Positions 1,681-45,885 of a DNA stretch of 64,000 bases are shown piece after piece (the stretch's first letter is position 1; every line of letters starts with the position of its first letter). Location of the stretch: contig JASTWF010000333.1 in the NCBI GenBank assembly GCA_030390025.1, positions 1-64,000 on the forward strand. Reading direction: 5' to 3'. Below the pieces are notes generated by a model. The model did not search any database, was not told the DNA's origin, and saw only the letters and a program-made list of their open reading frames with translations. A program made the position numbers and the translations under genes. The stretch is from Squalus acanthias. Taxonomy: Eukaryota.

Positions 1681-3278
1681 TACCAGGTCAGTAGCTCAGT
1701 AAATGCACAAGACTTGAGACTACAGAGCTGGCTGTTGTCCTGGGGAGCAGCAGGGGCAGGGGACTATCTGTGATCTAATGGGGAAAAAAGTGTTCGAACA
1801 AGAGGTGAGGCAGTTTTTGCAGGCAATTAATGGAGGCTTTGATGTCATTATAGGTGGAAGGGCAGAATCAGAGGAGGTTTGAATGAGAGGGGTCTATGAT
1901 AAAATCGACGCAGTAACAAATATTTTTTCTCCTACCATGCTTTTATTACCACAAGTGATGCTTTATCCATGAACTATAAAACAGATAATATGACTTATTA
2001 TTTTTCTACCGATCGATATTACAGTAGCTTCCTCATTATAAAGCAGTTTAGGTACCTTCACTGTGCCAATCAACAAAGTGATTGAAATAGTTTTACTTAA
2101 AGTTTTATCTCCTGATGGTACAAATAGAATATGTAATGAACAAGTGTGATATGTAATGAACAAATCCATTTATAATAGTCAATCTCCTATGGCACTGTAC
2201 ACAGGGAGTCAAGAGCAAGTGTAGTCTTCAGGTGAAACGGAGTTAGAGGGCAGGGTTGCAGACATATTTCAGTTGAACTCATTTTAAAGTCATACGTTCT
2301 GTCCTTATGTTTTTAGAAATTTCCATTATAAATTCCTGTGCCATATTCATGATGGAAACTGCCTATATAAACTTATCACACTGTTATTACACCATCCTGC
2401 CACTGTTGGTGCTGTAGCACCTCCATTGATGGGAGGGTTGTACCTACAGTGTGGCAGGTTTACATTATAAATGTGGGCATAAGAATTTATAATGGGGAAA
2501 AGTTGACAGGAAATGCATACAGATGTAAGATTTTTAATGTATTAATAGTTCAATTTCACTGATAGAGTTGCCATCAGTCCAGTTTTCAGTTGGGATAGTC
2601 CATTTATTTTGAGCAGGCTGCTGTGGTTTTTTTTTTAATCGTTAATGTAAAAAGGGCAAGGATCGTTTTCTGCTTGGTTCTCCGTGGATATTTATCACCC
2701 AGTATCGTAAGGTTTACATTAAAATATCAATACCGGACTGATGTGAACTGTTCCCGGAGAATCAGCAGAGCAATGAAGTTCATTGTACCCAGTGAGCAAA
2801 GGCTTGCCATTACAATAAATTTGACCCTTGTACCAATCGAATGTCGATCCACACGTCAGTTGAAATAATTTGCTTTGATACAATTTTGAAACGGTCTTTT
2901 CCTAAACCACACCTAATCACCCTCTCTCCGGTTTTGGATTTGGTAAAGGGTGGCACCCTAGTCACTGCTAAGGATTGCTTACACAATTCACTTCTGTCAT
3001 TCTCAGTATGACTTATGAGGTTCGCCCTCATCAGTGAAATACAACATATTACACATTTGCTGATTGCACATCCTCTACTCATATTTTTGATGCATCATAG
3101 TTTTATAATCCAAAAGTCCAAATCATTTAATTGCCAAAGATACTGAATAAAGGCATTACAGTAAAATATATTTACAGTGAAACACTGAATTGTAATAAAT
3201 TTAGAAAACTGTGTTCACTTTTACCAGAGAAGGGTAAGGAATCAAGAAAGAGCTTTCAAATCAGGTTTTCTAAAGGAT

Positions 3279-3413
3279 AAAAACAGAAATTGCTGGAAAT
3301 ACACAGTAGGTCTGGCACCATCTGTAAAGAGAAAAGGCAGGTTAATGTAACCTGAACATTAACCTGTCTTTACAGATGCTGACTGACCTGTACATATTTA
3401 CAGTATTATCTGC
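3279..3413. mobile_element. Degenerate Penelope terminal-repeat fold-back fragment
   Basis: AAAACAGAAATTGCTGGAAATAC...CATCTGTAAAG...GGTTAATGT / ACATTAACC...CTTTACAGATGCTG; same family and inverted geometry as 39956-40184. Confidence 0.6.
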
Positions 3414-3421
3414 CTTTAACA

Positions 3422-29710: not shown

Positions 29711-32700
29711 ACTGTTGCCAGGAAGCTCATACGTTTCGACATTGACATCGCCGCCCTAAGCAAGACCCGGCGGGCAGGGGAAGGCCAGCTCAAGGAGGAA
29801 GGCGGTGGTTACACCTTCTTCTGGAAAGGTAAACCTGAAGAAGAACGCCGCCTCCATGGGGTAGGCTTCGCCATAAAAAATGAGCTAGTTGATCGTCTCA
29901 GAGACTCCCCTTGTGGAATAAACGAACGCCTCATGACTCTACAGCTCACCCTAGCCCGGAACCAGTGCGCTACGGTCATCAGTGCGTACTCCCCAACAAT
30001 GGAAGCCACAGACAAGACCAAAGAGGAATTCTACTCCAGCGTCGAACAATCCCTGTCCCGAGTCCCAACGGGTGACAAGCTGATCCTCCTTGGCGAATTC
30101 AACGCCAGAGTTGGAAAGGACACAGACCTCTGGGGAGGTGTGATCGGCAGAGAGGGGGTAGGGAAAGCCAACTCCAACAGTACCCTCCTCCTGACGAAAT
30201 GCTTAGAACATGGCCTTGTCATAACCAACACCCTGTTCCGTCAGAGAGACAAGTACAAGGCTTCATGGCAATACCCTCGCTCCAAGCACTGGCATCTCCT
30301 GGACTACGTCATTGTCCGAGCGAGGGACTGCAAGGACGTCCGCATCACCTGCGCCATGACAGGAGCTGATGACTGCTGGATAGACCACCGCCTAATCCGC
30401 TCTGTCATCTCCATCAATGTAGCCCCAAAACAGCGGTGGCAACAGAAACAATGCCGCAGGAAAATCAACGCTGGAGCACTCAAAGACCCTGCTAAGAAAG
30501 CCCTATTCAGCCTGCGCCTCACAATCAACCCGACGACTCCCAGTGATTCAGAGACACAGAGTGCCCACAGCGCCTGGTCTGCACTCAAGGCCTCCATAAT
30601 CAGCACCTGTGAAGAGACGCTCGGTCACTCGACCAGGAAACACCAAGACTGGTTCGACGAGAACGACCAGGAGATCCAGGAGCTAATAAGCCGCAAGCAC
30701 AAGGCATTCCTGATCTGGAAACAGCAACAGAACTCGAGAGCAAGAAAGCAGCTCTACAGACGCCTGAAGGCCGAGGTCCAACAAAAAACTCGTGACCTAA
30801 AGAACAGATGGTGGATGGAGAAAGCGCAGGAGATCCAGCAGCTAGCTGACAACCACGACGTGCGTGGATTTTTTAACGCAGTCAAGACCACCTACGGCCC
30901 AAGCACCCAAGGTCCTACCCCACTGCGGGCCAAGAACGAAGAGGTACTCATCAAGGACAGAGAGGCAGTCAGTGCCCGCTGGAAGGAGCACTTCGAACAT
31001 CTTCTTAACCGAGACACTGTCTTCAATGCGAGTGTCCTCAACTCCATCCCGCAGCATGCTACCCGCCACCACCTCAGCACAACCCCAGCCCGGCATGTGG
31101 TTGAAAAGGCCATCCGACAACTGAAGAACAAGAAGGCCTCAGGAGCAGATGGAATCCCTGCCAAGGTGCTGAAACATGGCGGAGAAGCACGATTGGCGTG
31201 AATTCATGAACTCATTTCTCTTATTTGGAAGGAGGAGGGCATGCCAGGGGATCTCAGAGATGCTGTAATCGTGACCATCTTCAAGAAAGGTGACAAGTCT
31301 GATTGCGGTAATTACAGAGGAGCCTCCCTGCTGTCTGCCACAGGGAAAGTCATCGCAAGAATCCTCCTCAATCGCCTTCTCCCAGTGGCTGAAGAGTTCC
31401 TCCCAGAGTCGCAATGTGGATTCTGCCCACTAAGGGGCACAATGGACATGATCTTCACCGCGCGTCAACTGCAAGAGAAATGCAGGGAACAGCACCAACC
31501 GCCGTACATGGCCTTCTTTGACCTCACAAAGGCCTTTGACACCGTCAATCGTGAGGGATTATGGAGTGTCCTCCTCAAATTCGGCTGCCCTCAAAAGTTT
31601 GTCACCATCCTCCGCCTGCTTCACGACGACATGCAAGCCGTGATCCTGACCAACGGATCTACCACAGACCCAATTCATGTACGGACTGGGGTCAAGCACG
31701 GCTGTGTCATCGCACCAACGCTCTTCTCGATCTTCCTGGCTGCAATGTTCCATCTCACCCTCAGTAATCTCCCCGCTGGAGTGGAGCTAATTTACAGAAC
31801 AAACGGGAAACTGTTCAACCTCCGTCGCCTCCAGTCCAGATCCAAGGTCATCCCATCCTCTGTCATCGAATTACAGTATGCAGACGACGCTTGCATCTGC
31901 GCACACTCTGAGGCCGAACTCCAAACCATTGTCAACACCTTCACTGAAGCGTACGAGAGCATGGGCCTTACACTAAACATCTGTAAGACAAAGGTCCTCT
32001 ACCAACCTGCCCCTGCCACACAGTACTGCTCCCCGATTAACAAAATCCATGACGAGGCATTGGACAACGTGGACCACTTTCCATACCTCGAGAGCCTACT
32101 GTCAACAAGGGCAGACGTTGATGACAAAGTCCAACACCACCTTCAGTGTACCAGTGCAGCCTTCGGTCGCCTGAGGAAGAGAGTGTTTGAAGACCAGGAC
32201 CTCAAACCCAGCACCAAGATCATGGTCTATGTCTCTGAAGCATACAAGAGGGCGGGTATCACTACAGCTGATACCCGCCCTCTTGTATGCTTCAGAGACA
32301 TAGACCATGTACAGCAGGCACCTCAAAGCACTGGAGAGGTACCACCAACGCTGCCTCCGCAAGATCCTGCAAATCCATTGGCAGGATAGGCGCACTGACG
32401 TCAGTGTTCTCGCTTAGGCCAACATCCCCAGCATCGAAGCTTTGACCATGCTCGATCAGCTCCGATGGACGGGTCACATTGTCCGCATGCCCGATACGAG
32501 ACTCCCAAAACAAGCGCTCTACTTGGAGCTCCGACATGGCAAGAGAGCCCCAGGTGGGCAGAGGAAACGCTTCAAGGACACCCTCAAAGCCTCCTTGAAA
32601 AAGTGCAACATCCCCACCAACACCTGGGAATCCCTGGCCCAAGACCGCACAAAGTGGAGGAGAAGCATCCGGGAAGGCGCCGAACACCTCGGGTCTCTTC

Positions 32701-34645: not shown

Positions 34646-34707
34646 AATACAATGAATTACAGTGATTTCTAAAATGTAGGCAAATATACTTTTCACATCA
34701 CAACACA

Positions 34708-35843
34708 ATAGCAAAATACTGCGGATGCTGGAAATCTGAAATAACAACAGACTGTGCTGGAAACACTCAGCAGGTCAGGCAGCATCGAGGAGAGAGAAAC
34801 AGAGTCCACGTTTCGGGTCCAACCGTTCGTCAGAACTGGAAAAGGTTAGGGAAGAGATTGTTAAGCTGGGGCAGGGAGCAGGGGAGGAAAGAACAAAGGG
34901 AAGGTCTGTGATAGGATGGAAGGCAGGAGAGATTGAATGACAAAAGGGATGATAGTGCAAGGCAAAAAGAGAGGTAATGGGACAAGTTAAGAAACAAAAG
35001 ATGGCTCTAGATGATGTGTGGATGATGATGGCAGCAACATTAACAGCTACTATGTGAGGAAACAAGAGAAAAAAAAAGAAAGAAATACATGGGCCAATAT
35101 ATAGTCTGAAATTGTTGAACTCGATGTTAAGTCCAGAAGGCTGTAAAGTGCCTAATAGAAAGATGAGGTGCTGTTCCTCGAGCTTACGTTGAGCTTCATT
35201 GGAACAATGTAAGAGGCCGAGGACGGAGAGATCAGAGTGGGAGTGGGGCGGAGAATAAAAGTGACAGGCGACCGGAAGCTTGGGGTCACGCTTGCGGACT
35301 GAACGGAGGTGTTCCGCAAAGCGGTCACCCAATCTGTGTTTGGTCTCCCCAATGTAGAAGAGACCACATCGTGAGCAGCGAATACAGTATACTAAATTGT
35401 AAGAAGTACAAGTAAGTCGCTGTTTCATCTGGAAGGAGTGTTTGGGGCCCTGGACAGTGGGAAGGGAGGAGGTAAAAGGGCAGGTGTTGCATCTCCTACG
35501 CTTGCATGGGAAGGTGCCGAGCGAAGGGCAAGGGGTGTTGGGGGTGATAGAGCAGTGGACCAGAGTGTCGCGGAGGGAGCAGTCCCTTCAGAATGCTGAA
35601 GGGGGTGGGGGAGGGGAAAATGTGGTGGTGGGATCACGCTGGAGGTTGCGGAAATGGCGCAGGATGATCCATTGAATGTGGAGGCTGGTGGGGTGAAAGG
35701 TGAGGACAAGGGGAACCCTATCATGGTTCTGGGAGGGAGGGGAAGAGGTGAGAGCAGAAGTGCAGGAAATTGAACGGACAAGGTCGAGGGCCATGTCAAC
35801 CACGGTAGAGGGAAATTCTCGGTTGAGGAAAAAGGAAGACATA
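34708..35843 (-). mobile_element. Penelope-like element 3' portion (GIY-YIG endonuclease and terminal repeat)
   Basis: ORF 34775-35428: TCTSYNLVYCIRCSRCGLFYIGETKHRLGDRFAEHL...PVACHF...LEEQHLIFLLGTLQPSGLN; upstream RVPLVLTFHP; terminal repeat 34710-34840. Confidence 0.9.
34803..34837 (-). ncRNA. Degenerate minimal hammerhead motif in the Penelope terminal repeat
   Basis: - strand AGTT-CTGACGA-A-CGGTTGGACCC-GAAA-CG-TG-GACT; G at the cleavage position and a stem II mismatch suggest inactivity. Confidence 0.5.
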
Positions 35844-37458: not shown

Positions 37459-39955
37459 CAGAAATTTAGGCTAGGGCCACAATCACAATCCATGTCTTAT
37501 GTGAGGATCACTCTCAGGAGGCATGTCTGCAACTGTGATTGCCCATATACTGAGCTCCTGATTTCAATCATACCACTGTGGCTAGTTGCCAAGTTGAGCG
37601 CAGATACTTCCTCACAGGAAGAGAAATAGAAACATAGCAACATAGAAGATAGGAGCAGGAGTAGGCCATTCGGCCCCTCGAGCCTGTTCCGCCATTTAAT
37701 GAGATCATGGCTGATCATGCAAATTCAGTACCCTGTCCCTGCTTTCTCCCCATATCCCTTGATCCCTTTAGCCTTAAGAAATATATCTATCTCCTTTTTG
37801 AATATATTTAATGAATTCCACAGGTTCACCACTCTCTGGGTGAAGAAATTCCTCCTCATCTCTGTCCTAAATGGCTTACTCCTTATCCTTAGTCTGTGAC
37901 CCCTGTTTCTGGACTCCCCCGCCATTGGGAACATCCTTCCTGCATCTAGTCTGTCTAGTCCTGTTAAAATTTTATAAGTTTCAATGAGATCCCCTCTCAT
38001 TCTTCTAAACTCTAGCGAATATAAGCCTAATCGACCCAATCTCTCTTCATACGTCATTCCTGCCATCCCAGGTATCAGTCTGGTGAATCTTTGCTGCACT
38101 CCCTCCATGGCAAGAACATCCTTCCTCAGATAAGGTGACCAAAACTGCACACAATACTCAAGGTGTGGTCTCACCAAGGCCCTGTACAACTGCAGCAAGA
38201 CATCCTTGCTCCTGTACTCGAATCCTCTCGCTATGAAGGCCAACATACCATTTGCCTTCTTAACTGCCTGCTGCACCTGCATGCTTACCTTCAGCGACTG
38301 GTGCACAAGGACACCCAGGTCTCATTGCACTTCCCCTTTTCCCAATCTATTGCCGTTCAGATAATAATCTGTCTTCCTGTTTTTGCCACCAAAGTGGATA
38401 ACCTCGCATTTATCCACATTATACTGCATCTGCCATGCATCTGCCCAATCACCCAACCTGTCCAAATCATACTGGAATTTCTCTGCATCCTCCTCACAGC
38501 ACACACGCCCACCCAGTTTTGTGTCGTCTGCAAACTTGGAGATATTACATCTAGTTCCCTCGTCTAAATCATTAATATATATTGTGAATAGCTGGGGTCC
38601 TAGCACCGATCCCTGTGGTACCCCACTAATCACTGCCTGCCACTCGGAAAAAGACCCATTTATTCCAACTCTTTGCTTCCTGTCTGCCAACCAGTTCTCT
38701 ATCCAAGTCAGTACGTTACCCCCAATCCCATGTGCTTTAACTTTGCACGCTAATCTCTTATGCGGGACCTTATCGAAAGCCTTCTGAAAGTCCAAATACA
38801 CCACATCCACTGGTTCTCCTTTATCTATTCTACCAGTTACATCCTCAAAAATTTCCAGTAGATTAGTCAAGCATGATTTACCTTTTGTAAATCCATGTTG
38901 ACTTTGTTCGATCCTGTCACTGCTTTCCAAGTGCTCTGCTATTACATCTTTTATAATGGACTCTAGCATTTTCCCCACTACCGATGTCAGGTTTACCGGT
39001 CTATAATTCGCCATTTTCTCTCTACCACCTTTTTTTAAATAGTGGGGTTACATTAACTACCCTCCAATCCATGGGAACTGTTCCAGAGTCTATAGAATTT
39101 TGGAAGATGACCAGCAATGCATCTACTATTTCTAGGGCCACTTCCTTAAGTACCCTCGGATGTAGATTATCAGGCCCTGGGGATTAATCGGCCTTCAATC
39201 CCATCAATTTCCCTAACACCATTTCCCTACAAATACTGATTTCATTCAATTCCTCCCTCTCATTAGACCCTATGTTCCCCGACATCTCTGGGAGTTTATT
39301 TGTGTCCTCCTTTGTGAAGACAGAACCAAAGTATGTATTTAATTCGTCAGCCATTTCTTTGTACCCCATTATAAATTCCCCTGATTCTGACTGCAAGGGA
39401 CCTACACTTGACTTCACCAATCTTTTTCTCTTCACAGTTTTTATGTTCCATGCAAGCTTACTCTCATATTCTATTTTCCCCCTCTTAATTAATCCCTTTG
39501 TCCTCCTTTGCTGAATCCTAAACTGCTCCCAATCCTCAGGTTTGCTGCTTTTTGTGGCCAATTTATATTTCCTCTCCTTGGATCTTCTGCTATCCCTAAT
39601 TTCCCTTGTTAGCCATGGTTGAGTCACCTTTTTTGTTTTATTTTTATGCCAAACAGGGATGAACAAATTCTGTAGTTCATGCATGCGATCTTTAAATGTT
39701 TGCCATTGCCTATCCACCGTCAACCCTGTAAGTAACGCTCCCAAATCCATCCTAGCCAACTCGCGCCTCATACCATCGTAGTTTCCTTTATTTAAATTCA
39801 GGACCCTAGTCTCTGAGTCAACTACTTCACTCTCCATCTTAATGAAGAATTCTATCATATTATGATCGCTCCTCCCCAAGGGGCCTCGCACAACAAGATT
39901 GCTAATTAATCCTTTCTCATTACATAATACCCAGTCTAAGATAGCCTGATCTCTA

Positions 39956-40184
39956 ATACAAAAAGAAAATACTGCAGATGCTGGAAATCTGAAATAAAAA
40001 CAGAAAATGCTGGAAATACTCAGCAGGTCAGGCAGCATCTGTGAAGAGAGAAACAGAGTTAACGTTTCAGGTCGATGACCAGGTTCTGATGAAAGGTCAT
40101 CGACCTGAAACGTTAACTCTGTTTCTCTCTTCACAGATGCTGCCTGACCTGCTGAGTATTTCCAGCATTTTCTGTTTTTATTTT
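39956..40184. mobile_element. 229-bp Penelope-derived fold-back insertion in CR1 ORF2
   Basis: Perfect 89-bp inverted repeat (39992-40080 / 40095-40183); 15-bp TSD ATRGCCTGATCTCTA (39941-39955, 40185-40199). Confidence 0.9.
40082..40118 (+). ncRNA. Minimal type-I hammerhead ribozyme motif with intact core
   Basis: GGTT-CTGATGA-A-AGGTC(ATC)GACCT-GAAA-CG-TT-AACT; palindromic ACGT replaces stem III; predicted cleavage after 40114. Confidence 0.7.
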
Positions 40185-40829
40185 ATGGCCTGATCTCTAG
40201 TTGGTTCCTCGACATATTGGTCCAGGAAACCATCCCGTATACACTCTAGGAATTCCTCCTCCACGGTATTGTTACTAATTTGGTTAGCCCAATCTATATG
40301 TAGATTAAAGTCACCCATGATAACTGCTGTGCCCTTATTGCACGCATCTCTAATTTCCCATTTTCTGCCTTTGATATTTCTCAGCTCTACCCATACAGAT
40401 TCCACATCATCAGAGCTAATATCCTTCCTTACTATTGTGTTAATCTCCTCTTTAACCAACAATGCTACCCCACCTCCTTTTCCTTTTTGCCTGTCCTTCC
40501 TGATTATTGAATACCCCTGGATGTTGAATTCCCAGCCTTGGTCACCCTGGAGCCATGTCTCCGTAATCCCAATTATATCATATCCATTTACATCTATTTG
40601 CGCAGCTAATTCATCCACCTTATTAGGAATTCTCCTCGCATTAAGACACAAAGCTTTCAGGCTTGTTTTTTTTAACACTCTTAGTCCTTTTAGAATTATT
40701 ATTTACTGTGGCCCTGTTTGATTTACACCCTTGATTTCTCTGCCTTCCACTTTTGCTTTTCTCCTTCCTGTCTTTTGTTTCTATCCTTGCTTCCCTTTCC
40801 TCTGCACAGGTTCCCAACCCACTGCCATT

Positions 40830-41779: not shown

Positions 41780-42188
41780 GACTTACCCTTTAATTAATTT
41801 AAATTAAATTAAATCAAATCAATACCACAAATTACACTACAATTAAATGATATACTAAAGGGCCCTTGTTTACTAGCACTCCCCGCTACACAACAGAGAC
41901 CTTAGAAACTATAACCACAAAAATTAAGACCTTCTAAACTTTATAAACTATTAACCTTAACTGTCAAACTATAGAGTAGTATAAATACTCACCTGGCCAT
42001 ACTCACCCAATCAGCTGCTTCCTCTTGCCCGCGTCACTTTTTGAATCGTGACGTGGCTCTGGAACGCCGCCACCGGTCTGTGAGATTGGTAAGCCTCTGT
42101 AAAAAAGCCCGTGAAAGTGAGTTTAAATACTCACTGTTCTCTCCTGTTGATCCCGACACCGGCCTCTTTTCTCCTGACCCACTGTACT

Positions 42189-42571
42189 TAGATAAATAAA
42201 TAAACCTGTGCTCCTTCACTCACTATATTTAGATAAATAAACCTGTGCTCCCTCACTCACTATATTTAGATAAATAAACCTGTGCTCCCTCACTTACTAT
42301 ATTTAGATAAATAAACCTGTGCTCCCTCACTCACTATATTTAGATAAATAAACCTGTGCTCCCTCACTCACTATATTTAGATAAATAAACCTGTGCTCCC
42401 TCACTCACTATATTTAGATAAATAAACCTGTGCTCCCTCACTTACTATATTTAGATAAATAAACCTGTGCTCCCTCACTCACTATATTTAGATAAATAAA
42501 CCTGTGCTCCCTCACTCACTATATTTAGATAAATAAATCTGTGTCCTTCACTCAGTGTACTTGGATAAATA
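42189..42571 (+). repeat. 37-bp minisatellite, about 10 copies
   Basis: Unit TAGATAAATAAACCTGTGCTCCCTCACTCACTATATT starting at 42189, 42230, 42267, 42304, 42341, 42378, 42415, 42452, 42489, 42526. Confidence 0.95.
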
Positions 42572-44646
42572 GCAACAACAACTTGCATTTCTTAACATGG
42601 AAAAACATCTCAAGGCACTTAAATAAATAAGGCCCCTCACCCACTCCAGTTACATGAATAAATAAATCTGTGCTGCACACCCATCATACTTACACAAATA
42701 AATCTGTTCCTTTCACCAATCCCAGTTACAAAAATAAATCTATGCCACTATTATTTCCTGGCTACAGAAGTAAATAAATCTTTGCCCTTACCCCATGATA
42801 TATATTAACCAAATGTAGAACAGATGAGCATCAAAAAGATACAGAACATATAGGAGACTATATATAAATATTAGAAGTATTAACTGAACCTTGTGCAGTG
42901 ACTCACCAGTAATCTGGGGTCGGGGGTATTGTTTTGATGTCTAATATTGTGCCACACCTAATGGAGAAGCAGAACACAGCAGGGTTGGAGAATGGGAAGT
43001 GAAAGACAATGGGGAAGAAGACTGTGAGGCAGGTTTCAGAATCTTCAAATGAAAACCATTGAACGTGGAGAGAAGTCGGAGTTTAGCTGTTTAACAAAGC
43101 AACAGGGCAAACCGTGATGGCAGCTGTTTTGAGAGAATTTTTCACCCCCGGATCTGATTTCCAATCAGAAGACTGTATACCGGGAGATTTTTGTTTCCAT
43201 TCGTCCAATTGCAAAATTAGAATATGTTGACTCCAATGAAAAACAAAATTGAGCGTGATGTAAAGAGTGGCTGCCGATTCTCTATCAGCCCGTTTTGCGC
43301 TACCCGCCTATTTTGCTGACCAATTTCACCGCCACTTACCTCTTTAAAGTGCTTGAATTATTTTTTATGATTAACAGTGAGACTGAGCATTCATAGTGTA
43401 GACATTGGCTTCTTGTTTGTAAGCCTTGCTCCCCCTGTCCAGTATTACATAGAATTACATAGAACTTACAGCACAGAAACAGGCCACTCGGCCCAACCAG
43501 TCTGTGCCAATATTTATGCTCCACATGAGCCTCCTCCCACCCTACTTCATCCAACCCTATCTGCAAATGCTTCTAGTGGTAGGCCTTCTGAATATTGTAC
43601 TTCATCAGAGTGGTATAGACAGTGATACTTGTGCATTCTTGAAGTCTGTTCCTTATATGAGCCTCATCATTAAGGAAGCCCAAAACACACCAATGAAAGG
43701 CGAAGAATGCAGCAGAACCCAGGACCTGGTTTCCAGAGAGAGGCCTGTGCAGAGCAAACTTCTTTTAGGCATCGCAAACATTAAGTGGTCAACTTTATGG
43801 GTAAACTTAGTGTTTTTTTATGATTATTTATTTTTTGAATGTATTTGTCATGTGATCTGAATGTTAGTTGTATTGTTACACTTTCATCTGGGTCAGAAAT
43901 TCAGATGGTGGCTAAAACCAGTAGGAAAAAATAAATTGAGCAATGTGATAGATCTGAGCGATTGAATTGGATTCTGAGATTTTCCCACTCCTGATTGGTA
44001 ACTGTTTTGGTTGGCAGCCTTTCATACACACATCTACATTTACCTAAGCAGTATGGTTAGTTACGCTGGTCAGAAAAGCATGACACCTTAGTGGGCGGCA
44101 ATCTCACTCTGACAGACCATGAGGATAAATTGTAAAAAAATAACATTGGTGCAACAGGTCTGCTCTTCTGAGCTTGGGGGGTTAAGGTTATCTTATCAGA
44201 GTGGAGTAAAAGGAGCTTTATGTAATGGCCTTGGAAGAGTATACCTCCTTAATGCTGGCATGGAATCCTAGCACCAACATCCTTCGCCTTGATGAGCAAA
44301 AAAAACATGTTTTTGTAAAAGCGATTGTACATGAGATGATCTTCAGTTCACTTCAGGGGTAGTAGTTTAATTACATAGCTTGATTTACTGCATGAAAGCC
44401 AGTGGTTGGACTTTATCCAATTAAAGAGGAAGTACTGTGACATCTGAACAAAAGCACCAAAACAAACATTTCAGTACATTTTAAATGGGTACAGCTATAT
44501 ATCTTATAGAAGGTTAGTTACACTCTGGTTTTATATTGATCATGACCTCAAATATAACCCATTATATCCACAGCTAAGAGGAGTCCTCCTGTTACTGTCA
44601 ACAGAAGTAAAAATCTAACCAATTCCATGATATAACATAATAAGAT

Positions 44647-45628
44647 GTTCTGATGAACATTAATCAACCTGAAACATTGGGGGCAATTTTGCCAGCCCTG
44701 GGGAGGCGGGTTTGGAGGCGGGATTGCCGGGAAAATGGCAGAATCTGGGGGTGGGTACCCATCCCGGTACCCATCCCTCCCCCAACCCACCTCCGTGCCA
44801 TCTTCCCAGGAGGCGGGTACCCGACCCGCGCCAGGTCCCATCTCCTCGAGGCGGGAAGGAATTAGTGTCAATTAACTGCCTGTTAACAGGTAGTTAACAG
44901 GCAGCTTTTTGGCTAATCCCTATTTTGAGTCCTGAAGTGTGGGTTTCCCGACGGCTCCAAACCTCGCCAGGGTCAGCGAGGCGGGCCGTCGGTCTGCGGG
45001 GGTCGGAGGGGTCGAGATGTCCAATGTGCAGGTGAGTGATGGGTGCATGTGTGCAGAGGTAAGTGTGTGAGGTGAGTGTAAAGTGTTTTAATAAGTTTTA
45101 CTTACCTTTACTTCTTCCTGCAGGCTTCCTCCCTTCAGGTCTTGGGAGTCCCTCAGCTCACCGGCAGAGAAAGCAGAATGGCCGCTGAACTGTCAAAAGC
45201 TGCAGCCTTCTGCTTACTGCTCAGGGAGGCTTTCTAATTGAGTCTTGAGTAAAGACTCAACTTAGAAGACAGATTGTTAGTGTTTGACTGCTTCACAGAG
45301 CTGTCATACGGTGACATTTCATCTGTCAAAGGCTCTTGACAGATGAAACGTCACTCACTGACGTCATCTGTAAACGGCTTTCCCTTAATTGGCCTGCTAA
45401 ATCCGCTGGGCGGGCTTAACAAGGTCAATCAAGGGAAAATAGCGTGGGTTGGCCACAAGTCGATGGAGGCGGGACTAAAACCCGACAAGTGGGAGTCCCG
45501 CCTCCAAAAGCTCCCCATTGACAAAATCCAGCCCATTAACTCGGTTTCTCTCTCCACAGATGCTGCCTGACCTGCTGAGTATTTCCAGCATTTTCCGTTT
45601 TTATTTCAGATTTCCAGCATCCGCAGTA
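44647..45628 (+). mobile_element. Penelope terminal-repeat fragment split by a TIR element
   Basis: GTTCTGATGAA...ACCTGAAACATT (44647-44678) continues as AACTCGGTTTCTCTCTCCACAGATGCTGCCTGACC after 45537. Confidence 0.75.
44679..45534 (+). mobile_element. Non-autonomous Harbinger-type element (family of 27454-28292)
   Basis: TIRs GGGGGCAATTTTG and rc GGGCTGGATTTTG; ATT on both flanks (44676-44678, 45535-45537). Confidence 0.9.
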
Positions 45629-45697
45629 GTTCACCTTTATAATAAGATGGCTCTCTTAGGCAACAAAAAAATGATCAATTCCATCATTTCTTTTCAG

Positions 45698-45885
45698 CAT
45701 TTCAAGTCTTTCATGGGAAAGAAGATGTCACTGAGGAACTGGAGGAAGTCCAGGCAGAAATGAAAGCCCTGAGGCACGTGCACTTGGTTTCAGTCTTGCA
45801 GCTACTGCGAAAGCGGTCTGCACGTTGGCAGGTCATCACAGTCATTGTCACTATGGCCTGCTACCAGCTCTGTGGTTTGAATGCT
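45698..45885 (+). CDS. SLC2A9: GLUT9 (facilitated glucose/urate transporter) internal coding exon, 188 bp
   Basis: TTTCTTTTCAG acceptor, GTAAGT donor; (A)[62 protein letters not shown] matches human GLUT9 as I recall it ([21 protein letters not shown]); phase 1 start, phase 0 end. Confidence 0.95.

Follow-up and report, generated by a model that had tools for sequence, protein, structure and literature searches.

Within a 64-kb stretch of Squalus acanthias DNA (the window, which is the whole of one contig), a short insertion folds back on itself around a hammerhead ribozyme core, which raises the question of whether its arms serve to silence a ribozyme lying sense to a host gene or whether the structure is a trace of how a transposon was inserted. 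From comparison of genomic copies, we found that the 229-bp insertion very probably consists of two head-to-head, hammerhead-bearing ends of an abundant Penelope-like retroelement (PLE), and that the fold-back most likely arose as a side effect of insertion and is itself without function. The features of the locus are as follows.

39941..39955, no strand: left copy of the target-site duplication, 15 bp, one mismatch to the right copy and perfect in the second haplotype
39956..39991, minus strand: Penelope "tail" of 36 nt, on the left arm only, of the tail type described in PMC3846280, PMC8557442 and PMC11167929
39992..40080, minus strand: left arm, an inverted pLTR end that is 5'-truncated inside helix II and has no CUGAUGA core
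40081..40094, plus strand: loop and seam of 14 nt, with the helix I 5' strand, the core and an extra A
40082..40118, plus strand: predicted minimal type I hammerhead motif, by inspection against the description in PMC4209133
40095..40183, plus strand: right arm, a direct copy of the pLTR end that stops at the short (tail-less) end point
40185..40199, no strand: right copy of the target-site duplication
39700..40420, minus strand: CR1-type LINE reading frame broken by the insert (the stretch examined; the element is longer)
45698..45885, plus strand: downstream exon of SLC2A9 (GLUT9), which fixes the strand of the host gene

The insert spans 39956-40184 and is flanked by a target duplication (39941-39955 and 40185-40199) with one mismatch in the window copy (14/15; 12 exact) and none in the second haplotype (15/15). 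Its arms, 39992-40080 and 40095-40183, are exact reverse complements over 89 bp that cannot be extended outward, with a 14-nt loop (40081-40094) between them, and the predicted RNA fold of 39941-40199 reaches -177.2 kcal/mol (z = -23), a value that none of 200 shuffles equalled. The residues RDQAI are duplicated in the minus-strand CR1 frames on either side of the insert, and the right-hand frame gave a weak match to Exo_endo_phos_2 (E 7e-4, under the Pfam cut-off). An original prediction made from the letters of the window had described the 229-bp insert with its 15-bp duplication, the exactly complementary arms around a 14-nt loop and the repeated RDQAI, and all of these descriptions hold. 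The inverted, 5'-truncated, head-to-head pLTR, the one-sided tail within the 30-40 nt range and the target duplication are the features by which EN+ Penelope elements are recognized. The non-LTR retrozyme layout of tandem direct repeats with complete type I hammerheads does not describe the insert, which is a single inverted unit with one core. Among 254 loci examined for a preferred CR1 landing site, three others carry the same CR1 stretch and none has an insert at this site, although the sample is small.

By inspection, the hammerhead motif comprises the core (40086-40092), an extra A (40093), helix II (40094-40106), the GAAA box (40107-40110) and an ACGU palindrome (40110-40113), with the predicted cut after 40114. 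Helix I has 4 bp with a G-U end and helix II has 5 bp closed by A-U. Compared with the description of PLE hammerheads in PMC4209133, the CUGANGA and GAAA boxes, the extra base after A9, the 15.2-16.2 palindrome and the NUH site are all present at 40082-40118; the conserved (not absolute) G10.1-C11.1 closing pair of helix II is replaced by A40094-U40106, and this A-U pair is also found in 5,627 exact family copies. A search of the whole window against Rfam at gathering score gave no match, and at E up to 10 the segment 39900-40250 gave 22 weak matches, none to a hammerhead family; the miRNA matches among them are far under their gathering scores and reflect the hairpin shape. The motif layout and the parent element described below agree with the predicted Penelope-type end bearing a minimal hammerhead, while the appeal to the CChMVd hammerhead to account for the extra A is unneeded, as an extra A is general in the PLE minimal hammerheads described in PMC4209133. 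At 40086-40094, an ATG inside the core opens a frame that runs through the arm and the tail in the parent, which recalls the lizard element with its ORF start at helix II.

To estimate the size of the family, exact sequence copies were counted over the 3.7-Gb genome, where every reversed-sequence control gave 0. The hammerhead 32-mer is present in 5,627 exact copies, a 36-mer from the window's subfamily in 16,959, a 39-mer from a younger subfamily in 19,474, and the fold-back seam with the core in its loop in 309. The variant shared by the two arms and absent from a downstream copy, to which the original prediction drew attention, is indeed shared but is not private to this insert; it is a subfamily letter, present in 4,628 exact copies versus 14,012 for the alternative letter, and the partner arm carries the same letter in 7 of 9 readable hits among 30 loci, that is, in most and not in all. 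A candidate parent was found at locus L063, where, between the two members of an inverted pair, a 710-aa, 5'-truncated ORF precedes the same end. This ORF has the DKG and YIDD motifs, a CX4CX2C linker before a GIY-YIG domain, and two Pfam matches that both fall below their curated cut-offs (RVT_1: E 1.6e-5, 25.2 bits versus 29.6; GIY-YIG: E 4.5e-4, 20.9 bits versus 22.6). A single ORF with reverse transcriptase and C-terminal GIY-YIG upstream of the pLTR is thus seen in the parent and not in the stub in our window, and the linker is of the CX2-5CxxC type that marks Neptune, although such a linker occurs in Nematis too (PMC8557442). Two long members of the window's subfamily agree with the L063 parent at ~87% over 1.5 kb. 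The parent is a Penelope-like element with reverse transcriptase and GIY-YIG domains. Three other sampled stretches (L061, L062 and L127) gave no long PLE ORF. The first of these (C1:7051500-7058500) has PLE ends that recur at intervals of 1.7 and 3.3 kb, with a short tandem repeat after each, and identical 105-aa fragments, as in a young local array of truncated PLEs.

The anatomy of fold-backs of this kind was read at the first 30 of the 309 seams. An exact target duplication of 14-17 bp flanks 20 of them, and the arms are identical over 70 nt in 17. A one-sided tail is present in 28 of the 30, lying on the truncated arm in 14 and on the core-bearing arm in 14 (neither arm in 1, both arms in 1), and the arm opposite the tail usually ends at the short end point. 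Fold-back arms end at two family end points, which are seen in solo copies too. In a subfamily survey (87 of the first 88 hits on C1), an inverted partner lies no more than 480 bp away from 28 of the 87 hits (24 of 83 insertions), a count in which some partners (L135, L148, L154 and L157) may be unrelated neighbours and from which very short partners (L122, L140 and L184) are missing. The 5' ends of 55 of these copies fall between -20 and +52 from the core, and 18 of them lie at -5 to -2 versus 3.0 expected (corrected p ~3e-8), while the predicted cut site (+27 to +30) forms the 5' end of 2 of the 87 copies versus 3 expected. A further 17 ends near -195 mark the limit of the reference sequence and are not genuine ends. 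In the younger subfamily (30 hits) the stop at the front edge is weaker, with 3 clear cases; six more ends at -6 correspond to the upstream sequence of another subfamily.

These patterns can be accommodated by the following mechanism, which is read from genomic copies, none of its steps having been observed. The element's GIY-YIG nuclease would cut both strands of the target ~15 bp apart, and each cut end would prime reverse transcription of one and the same short RNA segment, one cDNA beginning at the long start (with the 36-nt tail) and the other at the short start. Copying would tend to end close to the hammerhead's front edge, which may be a transcription start, after which the two cDNAs would be joined head to head by short homology and gap filling would leave the target duplication. 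In transcripts of the intron, if any are made, the arms would then pair and bury the motif. Two-ended reverse transcription is favored because the tail shows no preference between the arms (14 versus 14 of 30) and because copies stop at the front edge (18 of 87). Purified lizard PLE protein, a predicted dimer, was reported to cut and extend both strands and to start at two sites bounding the tail (PMC11167929). We tentatively propose, with a little less than even confidence, that the stubs record Penelope insertion by a dimeric reverse transcriptase-nuclease that primes from each strand of a target cut with a 14-15 bp stagger, its two subunits using one tail-bounding start apiece; the template would be a short RNA that begins at the hammerhead front edge. 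If true, this would account for the inverted ends and the one-sided tail that have long been puzzling in Penelope, and the 5' end of the copied RNA would be set by something other than self-cleavage.

With regard to the front edge, the sequence there resembles the initiator consensus. The sequence just before the motif, a pyrimidine tract followed by CAG, is splice-acceptor-like. The D. virilis Penelope has an intron that ends at helix I (PMC4209133), and an internal promoter is described 46 bp ahead of the Penelope intron (PMC2377424). In the shark copies that stop at the front edge we found no sign of a spliced first exon, as they share no upstream sequence. A copied cap G at the seam was also considered and is unsupported, as G, A and T are all common in the first 100 of 617 non-C-AGTT starts and several starts are explained by overlap with the target.

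The same by-product could instead arise by self-priming, with one cDNA strand snapping back on itself in place of two primed cDNAs, which we consider unlikely. Palindromic inverted junctions of rotifer Penelope elements have been read as self-priming on an antisense template (PMC3846280), the commonest seam among our fold-backs (8 of 30) is the one expected from a cDNA that ends at -5 and folds back, and arms are often identical, as noted above for 17 of 30. However, in 14 of the 30, this locus included, the truncated arm has a tail that is absent from the core-bearing arm, and a truncated arm with a tail that its partner lacks cannot be a plain copy of that partner. The two end points shared with solo copies also argue against snap-back.

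The insert's position in a gene bears on whether the left arm has been kept as a silencer. The exon at 45698-45885 has its best match in SLC2A9/GLUT9 (E 8e-22; GLUT5 is next, at 3e-10), and the preceding SLC2A9 exon lies ~62 kb upstream of the insert on the C2 haplotype, a chromosome-scale contig, where it was the second of 8 weak matches (E 0.17) and is backed by position and translation; a motif scan of the window found no further SLC2A9 exons. Given these exon positions on the plus strand, the insert lies in a long intron of SLC2A9, a sugar/urate transporter gene, and its hammerhead motif is sense to that gene, which bears out the host gene and strand first suggested as probable. The window duplicates C2 near 148.39 Mb at 98-99% identity, and the same insert stands in that haplotype with 3 differences in 280 bp. 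The single change inside the element, 40111 C>T, breaks both the perfection of the hairpin and the ACGU palindrome required for helix III in a dimer; the predicted perfect fold-back is thus a property of the window copy and not of the second haplotype. Opposite window position 40680, just beyond the CR1 stretch, the C2 haplotype has ~4 kb extra (C2:148384700-148388900), a polymorphic insertion.

An active sense hammerhead would cut SLC2A9 pre-mRNA, so that masked or mutated copies would be those that survive in introns, and the left arm would be a retained silencer. We regard this reading, the self-silencing device of the original prediction, as quite improbable. It is in line with the sense orientation of the motif and with folds of growing prefixes, in which the left arm, being made first, pairs with helix II as soon as helix II emerges; the sequestration that had been predicted is therefore reproduced thermodynamically. 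It also draws on the other sense copy read in the intron, which is disabled, and on a preprint (10.64898/2026.07.22.740005) reporting that tandem retrozymes are under-represented in Xenopus introns relative to intron size, although the elements in that report are tandem arrays and not solo stubs. However, the same layout stands at 309 seams, and the motif itself, standing singly, is not expected to be active. In vitro, cleavage of a single S. mansoni minimal hammerhead was undetectable and that of dimers slight, as reported in PMC4209133, and the lizard PLE ribozyme was described as dependent on the element's protein, with insertion in vitro unaffected in ribozyme mutants (PMC11167929). Folded alone, 40082-40120 favors another structure (-7.4 versus -6.0 kcal/mol, with the hammerhead fold at ~1.5%), and the hammerhead copy of the parent element is likewise predicted to favor another fold. 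A motif scan found no second intact copy on the plus strand of the window with which the motif could pair, and the second haplotype has the helix III mutation. There is probably nothing to silence.

The disabled sense copy starts at 44647 and lacks a masking arm; its helix II is broken, and a later insertion of ~860 bp divides it. A family copy that the original prediction had placed at 45545 is real and is not separate, as the sequence at 45536 forms the rear half of this one. As the one further sense copy in the intron that was read closely (n = 1), it fits, together with the frog-intron preprint, weak selection against intact sense copies. The two parts (44647-44678 and 45536-45640) have their own 11-bp duplication, and the copy starts at -3 from the core. 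The ~860-bp element has inverted ends and splits the copy at the helix III/cut-site position; an element with the same ends interrupts the same position in L017 and L252, suggesting a recurrent landing site.

Other parts of the window carry further repeats. An older, decayed fold-back of the same family that has lost its hammerhead core lies at 3277-3418, and a copy of another subfamily, antisense to SLC2A9, whose helix II differs and whose core reads CUGACGA, lies at 34702-34836 on the minus strand. A 395-aa open stretch at 31202-32386 (plus strand) encodes a LINE-type reverse transcriptase (type by eye), and a tandem array of a 37-bp unit in ~10-13 copies occupies 42119-42617. Contigs of four sequencing runs from other organisms were compared with the stretch and matched it mostly as repeat copies, with no listed piece spanning the insert; they have no bearing on its age or expression.

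Whether the hairpin is a small non-autonomous unit copied whole, in the manner of a MITE or SINE, can be judged from its seams. The exact seam of the window recurs at 3 unrelated loci, as whole-unit copying would have it. However, these loci differ in subfamily letter and in tail side (one left, one right, one interrupted), and seams are highly varied among the 100 listed of the 309. Judged from these copies, the window's seam looks re-made and not inherited, and whole-unit copying is very improbable. An assembly artefact, in the form of a fold-back chimera in a small unplaced contig, has next to no chance of being the explanation and is refuted at the assembly level, since the insert is bounded by its target duplication and, even though the complete contig duplicates part of C2, its presence in the C2 haplotype with those few differences excludes a chimera and shows ordinary decay.

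As a single locus, the insert has little weight: it is a young, probably neutral, intronic transposon stub that is decaying in one haplotype. As a class, the stubs form a large natural data set on the mechanism of PLE insertion. The even split of the tail between arms favors two-ended priming over the published self-priming model, and the piling of 5' ends at the front edge of the ribozyme, away from the cut site, is relevant to the question of the ribozyme's role. If transcribed, hundreds to thousands of near-perfect 90-bp hairpins would be a source of dsRNA in shark transcripts.

Two-ended priming has a counterpart in L1 twin priming, where a staggered cut supplies two primers, the products meet head to head at short homologies, and the target is duplicated. 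The second L1 primer reads another stretch of the RNA, further upstream, whereas both shark arms copy the same segment and give a perfect hairpin. In a literature search whose scope left out most subscription journals, Repbase and supplements, we found no paper on this shark Penelope family or on twin priming by PLEs; PMC6155905 and PMC7229834 contributed background only. The PAc/Poseidon element of Anolis carolinensis (Frangieh et al. 2024, PMC11167929), as described there, is like the shark family in having its hammerhead at the pLTR-ORF junction and two tail-bounding end points, and its cutting of both strands suits two-ended priming, whereas the CX4CX2C linker of the shark parent is of the Neptune/Nematis type (PMC8557442) and not of the Poseidon type. 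Metazoan PLE minimal hammerheads (Cervera and de la Pena 2014, PMC4209133) share with our motif the core, the extra base between 9 and 10.1, a short helix I, no stable helix III and the 15.2-16.2 palindrome; the predicted shark motif differs in its 5-bp helix II closed by A-U instead of G10.1-C11.1 and in having a partner arm without the core. That report had already noted opposite-strand motif pairs separated by 100-700 bp, along with numerous lone motifs derived from truncated PLEs. Endonuclease-bearing PLEs also make inverted-pLTR insertions of a similar build (Pen2a_Av of the rotifer Adineta vaga, PMC3846280; overall scheme, PMC8557442 Fig. 2), in which a head-to-head, inverted, 5'-truncated pLTR lies beside a direct pLTR, with a 30-40 nt tail at one end and a target duplication. 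In comparison, the shark stub has neither an ORF nor a second direct pLTR and consists of two pLTR ends only (229 bp), the duplication is 14-17 bp in the shark family versus 8-10 bp in the rotifer, and the shark seam falls at the hammerhead. As published in these sources (PMC3846280; PMC8557442), a Penelope insertion typically combines a direct with an inverted pLTR, carries a tail on one side and is flanked by a target duplication, and the insert in our window is an ordinary member of this known kind of insertion.
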